A DNA stretch of 64,000 nucleotides, taken from assembly GCA_030765605.1 (NCBI GenBank), contig JAVCCG010000017.1:35582-99581 (forward strand), written 5' to 3'. This stretch comes from Candidatus Alcyoniella australis (GTDB lineage: Bacteria; Lernaellota; Lernaellaia; JAVCCG01; Alcyoniellaceae). A program made the position numbers and the translations under genes. This document shows positions 15,073-18,415 of the stretch, in pieces (position 1 is the first letter of the stretch; the number at the start of each line of letters is the position of its first letter). Under the pieces are notes generated by a model, which ran no database searches, had not been told where the DNA came from, and was given only the letters and a program-made list of their open reading frames with translations.

Positions 15073-16230
15073 ATGTCTATCAGAGCCACCAAGCAGATTG
15101 AAAACAGCCCGTTACCCGGGGGACCGGCGTTCATTCAGGGTAACGAGGCCATCGCAGATGCCGCGGTAATCGCCGGTTGCCGCTTTTTCGCCGGCTACCC
15201 GATCACTCCATCGAGCGAGATCATGCGCCGCATGATCGAGCGCTTCCACACTCTGGACGGCCGCTTCGTGCAGATGGAGGACGAGTTGGGCTCGATCGCC
15301 GCGGTGATCGGCGCGGCCTGGACCGGCGCCAAGGCGATGACCGCCACCTCGGGCCCCGGCCTGAGCCTGATGATCGAGAACCTGGGTTACGCCACGATGA
15401 CCGAAACCCCGCTGCTGCTGGTCAACGTCCAGCGCGTGGGGCCGTCCACAGGCCAGGCCACACGTCCGGCGCAGGGTGATGTGATGCAGGCGCGCTGGGG
15501 TGGGCACGGCGGTTTCCCCTGCATCGCGCTGGCTCCCTCATCGGTGCAGGAACTGATCGACTTCACCATCCGCGCCTTCAACCTGGCCGAGGCGTTTCGC
15601 ACGCCGGTGCTGCTGATGGCCGACGAGATCGTCGGGCATCTGCGCGAGAACTGCGTGTTCCCCGAACAGGTCGAGATCTGGCAGCGCTATTACGCGCCGG
15701 GCGAGCCGCCGTTCGACACCGACCACCCGAGCCTGGTGCCATCGATGCCCAAGTTCGGCGATGGCGAGGATCTGCTGATTACCGGCTCGACCCACGATGC
15801 CCGCGGCCTGCGCATGGCATCCAGCGCCGAGGTCCAAGCGCGCGTAAGCTGGCGGCTGCACGAGAAGTTCGAACGCGGTCGCGACGAGATCGTACGCACA
15901 CAGCACTTCGGCGAAGCGCAGCCCAAGCTGCTGCTGGTCTCGTACGGCGGCTCGGCGCGCGCTGCAAGGCAGGCGCTGACCCGGCTGCTCGACCAGGGAC
16001 GCGACGCGGGCCTGCTCAAACTCGACACGCTCTGGCCGTTTCCCGAGCAGCAGCTGCAAGCCGCGGCGGCCAAGGCCGATCAGGTACTGGTGGTTGAGGC
16101 CAACTGCGGACAGATCGTACTCGAGGTCGAGCGGCTGCTGCGCAACGGCCCGCGTGTGACCGCGCACCTGCGGCACGATGGCGAGGCGATAACTCCCAGC
16201 GAGGTGCTCGCCGCGGCGGAGGCGCTATGA
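15073..16230 (+). CDS. korA: 2-oxoacid:ferredoxin oxidoreductase subunit alpha
   Basis: FIQGNEAIADAAVIAGCRFFAGYPITPSSEI N-terminal signature of POR/KOR alpha; 385 aa. Confidence 0.8.
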   Translation: MSIRATKQIENSPLPGGPAFIQGNEAIADAAVIAGCRFFAGYPITPSSEIMRRMIERFHTLDGRFVQMEDELGSIAAVIGAAWTGAKAMTATSGPGLSLMIENLGYATMTETPLLLVNVQRVGPSTGQATRPAQGDVMQARWGGHGGFPCIALAPSSVQELIDFTIRAFNLAEAFRTPVLLMADEIVGHLRENCVFPEQVEIWQRYYAPGEPPFDTDHPSLVPSMPKFGDGEDLLITGSTHDARGLRMASSAEVQARVSWRLHEKFERGRDEIVRTQHFGEAQPKLLLVSYGGSARAARQALTRLLDQGRDAGLLKLDTLWPFPEQQLQAAAAKADQVLVVEANCGQIVLEVERLLRNGPRVTAHLRHDGEAITPSEVLAAAEAL

Positions 16231-17006
16231 GCGAAAGGCTGCTGACCCAGTACCCCGAGGAGCTACGGCCCGAGGCGTTCCCCACCACGTTCTGCCCCGG
16301 CTGCGGACACGTGCCGCTGATGACCGCGATTTTCGAGGCCTACCGGCTCAAGGGGCTCAAGCTGCGCGACACGACGTTCGTCTCGGGCATTGGCTGCGCT
16401 TCCTGGATTCCCAGCCCGCATTTCAAGGCCGACACCCTGCACACTACCCACGGCCGACCGATCGCCTTTGCCACGGGCGTCAAACTCGCCGCGCCGCAGC
16501 GGCGGGTGATGGTCATCTCGGGTGACGGCGACCTGGCGAGCATCGGCGGCAACCATCTGATCCACGCCGCCCGGCGCGACGTGCCGATCGTCGCGATCTG
16601 CGCCAACAACTTTATCTACGGTATGACCGGCGGTCAGGTCGCAGCGACCACGCCGTTGGGTCACATCACGCTGACCACGCCCTGGGGCAACGAGGAGCCG
16701 CCGTTCGACCTGTGCAAACTGGTGCTCGCGGCGGGCGCGCGCTTTGTCGCCCGTTGGTACGTCGGCCATCGCCGAGAGCTGATCGAGACCATCGCCGCCG
16801 CCCTGGATCACGAGGGGTTCGCCTTTATCGAGGCGATCTCGCTGTGCCCCACGGCCCACGAGCGACGCAACAAGCCCCGCGGCATGGGAGTGACCAAAGA
16901 TCTGTTCGTCACCATCGAGCAGGCGCAGGGAATGACCGAGCAGGAATTGGAACCGAAGATCGTCTGCGGCCGTTTCGCCGCGGATTCGACCAGGAGGAAT
17001 AAATGA
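16227..17006 (+). CDS. korB: 2-oxoacid:ferredoxin oxidoreductase subunit beta (TPP-binding)
   Basis: FCPGCGH motif and GDG TPP-binding motif. ATGA overlap with korA. Confidence 0.8.
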
Positions 17007-18415
17007 GCAATAGCCAAGACCAACCTAAGCGGCGCACGCGCCAGAAACGTTCCTGGGCCGAGCCGTTCAAGATCAAGGTTGTCGAACCAATCAAAATGAC
17101 CACCCGCGAGTCTCGCGCAAAGAGCTTGATCGAGGCGGGCTACAATACGTTTTTGCTGCGCTCGGACGATGTGTACATCGATCTGCTGACCGACTCGGGA
17201 ACCTCGGCGATGTCGGACAACCAGTGGGCCGGAATGATGCTTGGCGACGAGGCCTACGCCGGGTCCAAGAACTTCTACAACATGGTCGAGGCCGTGCGCC
17301 ACTACTACGGCTACAAGTACGTGGTGCCCACCCACCAGGGGCGTGGGGCCGAACACATCCTCAGCCAGTTGATGATCAAGCCCGGCGACGTGGTCCCGGG
17401 CAACATGTACTTCACCACAACCAAGCTGCATCAGGAGCTGGCCGGCGGAAAGTTCGCGGACATCATCATCGACGAGGCCCACGACCCGCAAAGCCAGCAC
17501 CCGTTCAAGGGGAACGTCGACCTGGATAAGCTGCAACGGCTGATCGACGAGTACGGCGCCGAGCGCATCTCCTACGTCTGCCTCGAGGGTAACGTCAACA
17601 TGGCCGGCGGCCAGCCGTTCAGCATGGGGAACCTCCAGCAGCTCAGCGCATTGTGTAAAGAGCACGGAATTAAAATCATGCTCGACGCCACGCGCACCGT
17701 GGAGAACGCCTACTTTATCAAACAGCGTGAGCCGGGCTTCGAGGAGCTGACGATCGCCCAGATCCTGAAGAAGATCTGCTCCTACACCGACGGGTGCACG
17801 ATCAGCGCCAAGAAGGACTGCCTGGTCAACATCGGCGGCTTCCTGGCGGTCAACGACGAGGAGCTGTTCGACCGCGCGCGCAACATGGTCGTGATCTACG
17901 AGGGGCTGCACACCTACGGCGGCATGGCCGGCCGCGACATGGAGGCGTTGGCGCGCGGCATCGTCGAGTCGGTGGAGTTCGACCACATCCGCGCGCGCAT
18001 CGGGCAGACCCAGTATTTGGGCCAGAAGCTGCTCGACGCGGGCGTGCCGATCGTCGAGCCCATCGGCAGCCACGCGATCTACCTCGACGCCAAGCGCTTG
18101 CTGCCGCATTTACCCCAGGACCAGTTCCCGGCCCAGGCGCTGGCAGCGGAGCTTTATCTCGACTCCGGCGTACGCGCCATGGAACGTGGTGTGGTCAGCG
18201 CCGGACGCAACCCCGAGACCGGCGACCACAACTATCCCAAGCTCGAGCTGGTGCGGTTGACGCTGCCGCGCCGGGTCTACACCCAGGCGCACATGGACGT
18301 GGTGGCCGAGAGCTGCGAGGAGGTCTTCTGGAACCGCGAGCTGATCCGCGGGCTGAAGATGGTCTACGAGCCGCAGTATCTGCGCTTTTTCCAGGCGCGC
18401 TTCGAGCAGCTGTAG
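17003..18415 (+). CDS. tnaA: tryptophanase / tyrosine phenol-lyase (beta-eliminating lyase family)
   Basis: 470 aa, closely similar to my recollection of E. coli TnaA ([44 protein letters not shown]-lysine region). ATGA overlap with korB. Confidence 0.8.

Follow-up and report, generated by a model that had tools for sequence, protein, structure and literature searches.

Genes for the alpha and beta subunits of a 2-oxoacid:ferredoxin oxidoreductase, without gamma or delta, overlap a predicted tyrosine phenol-lyase gene in Candidatus Alcyoniella australis

Results

Gene organization of the locus

We analysed a stretch of 64,000 nt from Candidatus Alcyoniella australis (contig JAVCCG010000017.1, positions 35,582 to 99,581; hereafter the window). 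In it, the genes for the alpha and beta subunits of a 2-oxoacid:ferredoxin oxidoreductase (OFOR) run into the gene of a pyridoxal 5'-phosphate-dependent lyase, predicted to be a tyrosine phenol-lyase (TPL), and no gamma or delta subunit gene of the oxidoreductase was found. All three genes are on the forward strand: korA (OFOR alpha, 385 aa) at 15073-16230, korB (OFOR beta, 259 aa) at 16227-17006 and the lyase gene (470 aa) at 17003-18415. Both junctions, korA/korB and korB/lyase, are ATGA overlaps. Shine-Dalgarno sequences precede the two downstream genes, GGAGG at 16218-16222, located 4 nt before the korB start, and AGGAGG at 16992-16997, located 5 nt before the lyase start. A first-pass annotation, made from the sequence alone, had given the same reading frames, gene order and ATGA overlap into the lyase, and all of these were confirmed in the sequence.

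Upstream of korA, a gene of the SNase family (staphylococcal-nuclease homologue according to Pfam) is located on the reverse strand at 14294-14857 and is transcribed divergently. The intergenic leader between the two genes (14858-15072) is presumed to hold the promoter of the operon. No sigma-70 consensus and no Rfam match were found in this leader, which has a short GC palindrome at 15010-15021 and nothing larger. At the other end, a terminator-like hairpin with a T-rich tail lies on the forward strand at 18442-18479. The hairpin proper (18442-18469) starts 27 nt past the lyase stop codon and has a 12-bp stem with 9 GC pairs and a 4-nt loop. Because the operon is bounded by a divergent gene upstream and by this hairpin downstream, the transcription unit would be exactly korA-korB-lyase, and we infer from the gene structure that the three genes are co-transcribed. 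The first-pass annotation had allowed that gamma and delta genes of the same operon might lie just outside the window; the operon ends inside it. The GC content at third codon positions of the three ORFs is 0.84-0.89, the same as in adjacent genes, and the regional GC content of 0.62-0.64 is that of the window, so nothing suggests recent transfer.

Alpha and beta subunits of the oxidoreductase

The assignment of korA and korB to OFOR alpha and beta subunits was borne out by Pfam. The alpha subunit matched POR_N (1e-68) and PFOR_II (1.5e-17), which means that it has domains I and II only. It scored 472 bits with NF006412 (cut-off 411), the model for '2-oxoacid:acceptor oxidoreductase subunit alpha', which is also the current NCBI name of this protein. 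The YPITP motif ('GYPITPSS') and residues R121 and T126 are present and invariant in the alignment of the clade described below; the roles of the YPITP region and of the carboxylate-binding Arg and the Thr in alpha subunits have been reported (PMC5020499). The best PDB match of alpha was 1yd7/4wbx (E = 8e-105), 4WBX being PF1771 of Pyrococcus furiosus, and residues 13-379 of the 385 were aligned with this alpha-only chain of 395 aa. As the alignment with 1yd7 runs end to end, there is no room for a hidden domain III in alpha. Against the fused gamma-alpha model TIGR03710, only positions 185-559 were matched, with a score of 331 (cut-off 482.75).

The beta subunit matched TPP_enzyme_C (4.7e-35), corresponding to domain VI, and stayed under every NCBIfam cut-off. 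Its best PDB match was 8ys5_C (E = 1.7e-54). It has the GDGD...NN motif for binding thiamine pyrophosphate (TPP), the cluster cysteines C23, C26, C57 and C207, and Trp60. The four cysteines and GDGD are invariant in 8/8 clade members and NN is found in 7/8, and all of them are kept in 61 gamma-bearing relatives. Conservation within the clade was 0.70 for alpha and 0.74 for beta, compared with 0.66 and 0.67 in the gamma-bearing relatives. With the catalytic motifs intact and the constraint not relaxed, both subunits look functional.

The lyase

The third gene product matched Pfam Beta_elim_lyase (1.1e-81). It scored 789 with the TPL model TIGR02618 (cut-off 720.7) and missed the tryptophanase models TIGR02617 (516 vs 825.8) and NF053783 (569 vs 750). 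The 11 best PDB chains were all TPLs, aligned over the full length without gaps at 650-662 bits; tryptophanases reached 416-461 bits. The active-site residues of Citrobacter freundii TPL used for comparison were Y71, R100, F123, T124, D214, R217, K256/K257, M379, R381, R404, F448 and F449. All 13 residues checked are kept in the window lyase at a constant offset of +14. Tryptophanase (TnaA, EC 4.1.99.1) was ruled out by the profile scores together with the PDB ranking, and the protein is classified here as a predicted TPL (EC 4.1.99.2), whose substrate would be tyrosine and not tryptophan. The first-pass annotation had called the gene a tryptophanase acting on Trp or Tyr. Its placement in the TnaA/TPL family of beta-eliminating lyases stands; the tryptophanase label and tryptophan fall away, as TIGR02618 is above its cut-off and TIGR02617 below.

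Search for gamma and delta subunits

Gamma and delta queries were taken from L088 (Gemmatimonadota, CP070758), the nearest four-subunit relative, whose alpha is 56% identical to that of the window. Using tblastn, no gamma was found in the whole 64-kb window (best E = 0.61). A delta-like match of 19 aa at 9686-9742 (E = 0.006) was dismissed, being antisense inside a FAD-oxidoreductase gene. Pfam scans of the other 44 called genes of the window, which have housekeeping functions and include several peptidases, found no POR domain (PF01558) and no ferredoxin/Fer4 domain. The gamma search was sensitive enough, because the same L088 query detects gamma, at 28-52% identity, in 61 of the 63 related loci with a complete beta among the matches listed. 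Domain III (gamma) is neither fused to alpha, nor located in the operon, nor found elsewhere in the window (-15/+46 kb), and domain V (delta) is found neither in the operon nor in the window. These searches extend to 64 kb the first-pass observation that no gamma or delta gene is adjacent. Every OFOR reported so far is stated to have domain III, the domain that bears the residues for CoA binding (PMC12337175).

A clade of oxidoreductases without linked gamma and delta genes

Gene-context look-ups of alpha homologues (55-71% identity) gave seven further distinct loci without gamma and delta: L001, L171, L085, L087, L175, L090 and L173. In an eighth further locus, L084, the contig ends inside beta. 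Subunit sizes within the clade are narrow (alpha 384-389 aa, beta 257-265 aa). In a neighbour-joining tree of 116 alpha sequences, built from simple distances, the gamma-less loci and nine database relatives without known gene context form one clade with 99% bootstrap; in the tree of concatenated alpha and beta its bootstrap value is 100%.

As a baseline for gene order, metagenomes were scanned with generic peptide patterns. The matches listed were relatives at 44-53% identity, with no new clade members among them, and gamma stands directly after korB in 61/63 of these nearest relatives outside the clade. Among loci outside the clade with enough sequence, the exception is L097 (1764-3969), which has the order delta-alpha-beta without gamma, followed by convergent genes. 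The changes fixed in the clade are HGD(Y/H)E to HGG(F/Y)P and E29D in alpha, and P21T and RRN to RRD in beta; the clade signature reads HGGFP where others have HGDYE. Since L097 has no gamma and yet keeps HGD, gamma was lost on more than one occasion, and its loss does not depend on the HGG signature. A scan for a relaxed patch that might mark the lost gamma interface gave only scattered positions and a few fixed changes. The lack of gamma and delta genes is a trait of the whole monophyletic clade and is not specific to the link with the lyase.

Members of the clade occur in three gene contexts, namely TPL, pyrD/carAB and HGD-D. In L090 (8001-15348), L173 (8001-15337) and L174 (6400-10392), the alpha-beta pair immediately precedes a pyrD-like DHO_dh gene, after which come carA/carB, and is divergent from pyrR/pyrB/pyrC. 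This slot before the pyrD-like gene is the usual position of pyrK, and the pair might serve the pyrD-like dehydrogenase. In L001 (3958-9928), L171 (3967-9928) and L172, alpha-beta follows two HGD-D genes (2-hydroxyacyl-CoA dehydratase/benzoyl-CoA reductase-like) on the same strand. The upstream genes there also include NAD-synthase-like and inositol-monophosphatase-family genes, and the arrangement could be one that supplies ferredoxin. The alpha-beta core may be a portable ferredoxin-linked module with varying partners.

The closest relative of the window alpha is that of L084 (71%), which shares with the window the upstream SNase-family gene (60% identity). In L084 (2-355 and 522-937), a HicA/HicB toxin-antitoxin pair is inserted between the SNase-family gene and korA. 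The query locus L088 (7554-16897, CP070758.1) has a second alpha-beta pair, POR/VOR-like, and then HMGL-like, aminotransferase, aconitase large/small and isocitrate/isopropylmalate dehydrogenase genes. Here a bacterium seems to share one gamma between two OFORs inside a cluster for 2-oxoacid elongation.

Subfamily and substrate pocket of the oxidoreductase

The beta subunits of loci L088-L175 split cleanly into an R-type with the motif 'GIGCxxR..GY' (43 loci) and a W-type with the motif 'GIGCxxWIPSP' (25 loci). Loci of the R-type nearly always have the order delta-alpha-beta-gamma. Those of the W-type, the gamma-less clade included, mostly lack delta and are otherwise alpha-beta-gamma; in W-type loci outside the clade that carry gamma, it directly follows korB (17/17). 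The window beta has the 'GIGCxxWIPSP' motif, and all 8 clade members have Trp at the position three residues after the third cluster Cys (Cys+3). With alpha closest to PF1771 and beta carrying this motif, the enzyme is assigned by sequence to an XOR-like 'WIPSP' subfamily. The split is a possible simple sequence marker that separates XOR-like enzymes from true 2-oxoglutarate enzymes, which are now annotated alike.

The Cys+3 position lines the substrate pocket, where it corresponds to Lys49b in StOFOR1 and Ile843 in Desulfovibrio africanus PFOR, and the K49I mutant of StOFOR1 lost 2-oxoglutarate activity and kept pyruvate activity (PMC5020499). Among solved enzymes, this residue is Arg in the 2-oxoglutarate:ferredoxin oxidoreductases (OGORs) 8ys5 and 6n2n, Lys in the broad-range StOFOR and Val in Methanosarcina acetivorans PFOR. 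The window subunits also fell below the cut-offs of the 2-oxoglutarate equivalogs, alpha with NF007206 (316 vs 579) and beta with NF007207 (209 vs 364). Because of these scores, and because the pocket residue is Trp60 and not Arg or Lys, 'Kor' is probably a misnomer, and the 'KorAB' label of the first-pass annotation is doubtful. The JGI label '2-oxoglutarate ferredoxin oxidoreductase' on relatives is probably wrong for this subfamily too. An uncharged substrate such as pyruvate is plausible from the pocket residue.

Linkage of the oxidoreductase and the lyase

The order alpha-beta-Beta_elim_lyase, on the same strand, was found on three other metagenome contigs, L085, L087 and L175 (also L176); the first-pass annotation had named a complete lack of such linkage in other genomes as evidence against a functional pairing. 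Compared with the window, these cassettes are 59-62% identical in KorA, 57% in beta and 76-78% in the lyase. The GC content is 0.49 in L085 and 0.64 in L087 (about 0.64 in the window). The four cassettes have only the three genes in common, and their flanks are unrelated. The ATGA overlaps of the window are replaced in the other three by spacers of about 60-135 nt.

No homologue of OFOR alpha or beta was found near TPL in any of the 80 most similar TPL loci of a species-level genome collection (70-77% identity, with flanks of up to 10 kb on either side where the contig allowed). One of these 80 is L030, from a fen_1099 metagenome-assembled genome (MAG) of the same candidate phylum. In L030 (10001-12022), TPL is followed by a second beta-eliminating lyase, a paralogue 45-49% identical and cut by the contig end, and no OFOR is located within 10 kb upstream. 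A literature search found no report of a link between TPL and OFOR, and nothing useful on PF0753/PF0754.

In the tree of concatenated alpha and beta, L085, L087 and L175 form a subclade with 100% bootstrap, and the window joins these three in only 6% of replicates. The window groups with a lyase-less subclade (92%), and both subclades together have 91%. In the TPL tree the three other cassettes group together (89%), with the window TPL nearby. As the window groups with a lyase-less subclade, the linkage either goes back to the ancestor of the larger group, having survived divergence to about 58% identity and been lost once, or was assembled twice. Both scenarios argue for selection on the alpha-beta-TPL pairing.

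The other three cassettes have a small ORF of 42-47 aa located 150-250 nt downstream of the lyase (L085, 3798-3926; L087, 8326-8469; L175, 10017-10151; L176, 6693-6827). Its consensus is ...YKRPxVxTTSxDxLxxxLGPAQTCSPSP..C..., and a TTGACA-like box precedes it. Neither the window nor any of the other ~170 loci examined has this ORF. With only two Cys it is not a ferredoxin, and as it is also missing from the window, it was rejected as a substitute for delta.

Genes around the operon

Downstream of the operon, at 18543-21259, lies the gene of a probable lipoprotein. Its N-terminal region is long, acidic, of low complexity and rich in Asp, Gly and Ser, and it has a type I phosphodiesterase/nucleotide pyrophosphatase domain. 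The start and frame of the gene are ambiguous, with overlapping ORFs at 18543-19550 and 19295-21259. A Phosphodiest gene is also found near korAB in L090. Genes for peptide degradation are located at 22978-25590, 26661-28046, 36500-38248 and 40123-42114 and comprise a class I/II aminotransferase, an M18 aminopeptidase, an HtrA-like protease, an S15 X-Pro dipeptidyl peptidase and an S9 prolyl oligopeptidase. The window also encodes SelA, a selenocysteine synthase (30108-31505), which implies that the organism uses selenoproteins.

Discussion

We propose that the three genes act, as one transcription unit, as a small tyrosine-fermentation module, and we hold the arguments for and against this proposal to be in balance. 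TPL would split L-tyrosine into phenol, ammonium and pyruvate, the chemistry expected of its family, in a reaction that is readily reversible. The TPP- and [4Fe-4S]-dependent alpha/beta enzyme would then decarboxylate pyruvate oxidatively and pass the electrons from its single cluster to free ferredoxin. Removal of pyruvate in this way would be irreversible and would pull the TPL reaction forward. If CoA is used, the acetyl-CoA formed would serve substrate-level phosphorylation and yield ATP. Both pyruvate as the substrate and this direction of flux are what we infer. The dedicated amino-acid fermentation module of the first-pass annotation gains support from the recurring alpha-beta-lyase order and loses its Trp/indole branch, the lyase being a predicted TPL.

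Candidatus Alcyoniella australis (phylum Candidatus Lernaellota, formerly FEN-1099) is described as strictly anaerobic and comes from the anoxic waters of Ace Lake in Antarctica (PMC9324843). Its MAG predicts a proteolytic lifestyle with fermentation of branched-chain and aromatic amino acids, and is reported to encode POR, a near-complete Wood-Ljungdahl pathway and the deamination of tyrosine (PMC9324843). A tyrosine-fermentation module fits such a strictly anaerobic, proteolytic fermenter of amino acids, and the cluster of peptide-degrading functions near the operon fits the proteolytic lifestyle. For anoxic waters and sediments, the pairing points to a way of gaining energy by turning tyrosine into phenol, which is relevant to microbial phenol production in general. 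It also gives a concrete substrate hypothesis, pyruvate, for the WIPSP/XOR-type enzymes, a question open since the analysis of the Pyrococcus genome (PMC3942289).

Several points weigh against a tyrosine-fermentation module. POR is already reported in the MAG, so a second pyruvate oxidoreductase is not obviously needed (PMC9324843). The XOR of P. furiosus (PF1771-PF1773) is expressed, and its substrate is unknown (PMC3942289). The case for an uncharged substrate uses a single pocket position, and Trp at Cys+3 was found in none of the characterised enzymes compared. In the absence of gamma within 64 kb, the product, acetyl-CoA or other, is uncertain. The phylogenies are neighbour-joining trees only. 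One further TPL, 78% identical to that of the window, stands alone, which brings the other TPL loci with an OFOR nearby to 0/81. The pyrD/carAB and HGD-D contexts mean that the alpha-beta pair is perhaps general-purpose rather than a partner of TPL.

The last two points lead to the alternative that the genes are adjacent without being metabolically coupled, the alpha-beta pair being a housekeeping or general ferredoxin-reducing module beside which the lyase happened to land. The two other conserved, lyase-less contexts of the clade agree with this, as do the TPLs at 70-78% identity that have no OFOR link, that of L030 included, and part of the synteny might be due to common ancestry of the other three cassette contigs. 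Yet the three genes are the only ones common to four cassettes whose every flank is different, both junctions in the window are translationally coupled, and the linkage spans lineages that are parted by a lyase-less subclade in the alpha+beta tree. Moreover, genes without a functional link seldom keep their order once their proteins have diverged to about 58% identity, and we regard mere adjacency as unlikely. We give a similarly low probability to the view that the oxidoreductase acts on another 2-oxoacid, derived from tyrosine or unrelated to it, so that the two enzymes would be parallel branches of aromatic amino-acid catabolism; candidates are 4-hydroxyphenylpyruvate formed by transamination and the substrate of XOR. 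The closest solved alpha is indeed that of P. furiosus XOR, with its unknown substrate (PMC3942289), and the bulky aromatic Trp of the pocket has no counterpart in any characterised PFOR compared. Relatives in the clade are found beside HGD-D genes, a context typical of amino-acid fermentation through 2-oxoacids and 2-hydroxyacids, and the class I/II aminotransferase gene of the window (22978-24174) is located 4.6 kb downstream. On the other side, none of the four cassettes includes an aminotransferase, and pyruvate is the only metabolite obviously common to both enzymes. Aromatic 2-oxoacids are, besides, normally substrates of IOR, by which route the MAG is reported to ferment aromatic amino acids (PMC9324843). 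A biosynthetic direction, in which alpha-beta works as a pyruvate synthase (from acetyl-CoA, CO2 and reduced ferredoxin) and TPL joins pyruvate, phenol and ammonia to tyrosine, seems highly improbable. Both reactions are reversible in principle, and CO2 fixation via CODH/ACS and POR has been proposed for the MAG (PMC9324843); but free phenol would be needed at high concentration, no phenol-related genes are found nearby, and the reverse OFOR reaction needs the binding of acyl-CoA, which is the function of the missing domain III (PMC12337175).

A separate matter is the missing gamma gene. The odds are roughly even between a gamma recruited in trans from another OFOR of this genome and an alpha-beta core that works without one. 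If alpha-beta assembles with a gamma, and perhaps a delta, encoded elsewhere and possibly shared, the enzyme would be a normal CoA-dependent OFOR with nothing but an odd gene layout, an explanation to which we give slightly less than an even chance. As it concerns architecture, it is compatible with coupling to TPL. In its favour, the clade shows no overall relaxation of alpha and beta compared with gamma-bearing relatives, and no large relaxed patch. There are also precedents, since POR and VOR of Thermococcales use one common gamma subunit, and L088 has delta-alpha-beta-gamma followed by a second alpha-beta pair without its own gamma and delta. The MAG itself could provide domain III, as it is reported with POR and with branched-chain and aromatic fermentation, ascribed elsewhere in that paper to VOR/IOR (PMC9324843). 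However, the shared gamma of the known precedents sits in the same gene cluster, whereas none is found within -15/+46 kb in the window or within 6-10 kb around the other 7 clade loci. The gamma-less state is also monophyletic and persists to about 55-60% identity with fixed signature changes, which fits a stable new state better than sporadic scattering. Such a state would make the clade one of bare alpha-beta OFORs with one [4Fe-4S] cluster and no domain III, which we put forward tentatively. These enzymes might bind CoA in a novel way or catalyse a CoA-independent oxidative decarboxylation, for example of pyruvate to acetate or an aldehyde, and might act as compact, partner-specific modules that reduce ferredoxin or remove pyruvate, the partner being TPL, the pyrD-like dehydrogenase or HGD-D. 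The clade is well supported, evolves under purifying selection and has no gamma gene in cis at any locus. It would represent either the first minimal OFOR made of alpha and beta only or a clear example of a subunit that must be supplied in trans, and either outcome bears on OFOR annotation and on the engineering of small modules for CO2 fixation or ferredoxin reduction.

Comparison with known systems

Like P. furiosus XOR, the best solved match of its alpha, the window enzyme has an alpha with domains I and II only. The three XOR genes PF1771-PF1773 presumably include no delta gene, and most bacterial WIPSP loci in our sample are without delta too. XOR differs in having a gamma gene of its own (PF1773), for which the window operon has no counterpart; it is regulated together with KGOR and has no linked lyase, and its substrate is unknown (PMC3942289). 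Four-subunit OGOR (8YS5/8YS6), the best PDB match of the window beta, shares the alpha and beta folds, the cofactor motifs and comparable subunit sizes. OGOR, however, has Arg at Cys+3 ('GIGCxxR..GY') where the window has Trp, and in this sample such loci nearly always have delta upstream and gamma downstream, neither of which is found in the window.

StOFOR1/2 of Sulfolobus tokodaii (5B46-5B48) and the OGOR of Magnetococcus marinus (6N2N) lack domain V, as the window enzyme does. In two-subunit OFORs there is a single [4Fe-4S] cluster, from which electrons pass straight to free ferredoxin (PMC5020499). Since these enzymes work without domain V, delta is dispensable. In contrast to the window alpha of 385 aa, their alpha is about 570-630 aa (up to about 650 aa in the Sulfolobus/Magnetococcus/Thauera type as a whole) with domain III fused N-terminally, and the window alpha matches only residues 200-535 of 6N2N_A and 231-573 of 5B48_A. 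The shared-gamma systems, namely Thermococcales POR/VOR and L088, resemble the window in having an alpha-beta pair that has no gamma or delta of its own and is presumed to use the gamma of a neighbour. In those systems the donor gamma is in the same cluster; here none was found within 64 kb.

The predicted TPL of the window aligns without gaps over the full length with the enzymes of C. freundii and Erwinia herbicola (2EZ1, 1TPL, 1C7G) and keeps their active-site residues. It differs from them in a basic N-terminal extension of about 14 aa and in the translational coupling of its gene to those of an oxidoreductase; in enterobacteria, tpl is a monocistronic gene under TyrR control. Four alpha-beta-TPL cassettes without gamma and delta are known, including that of the window.

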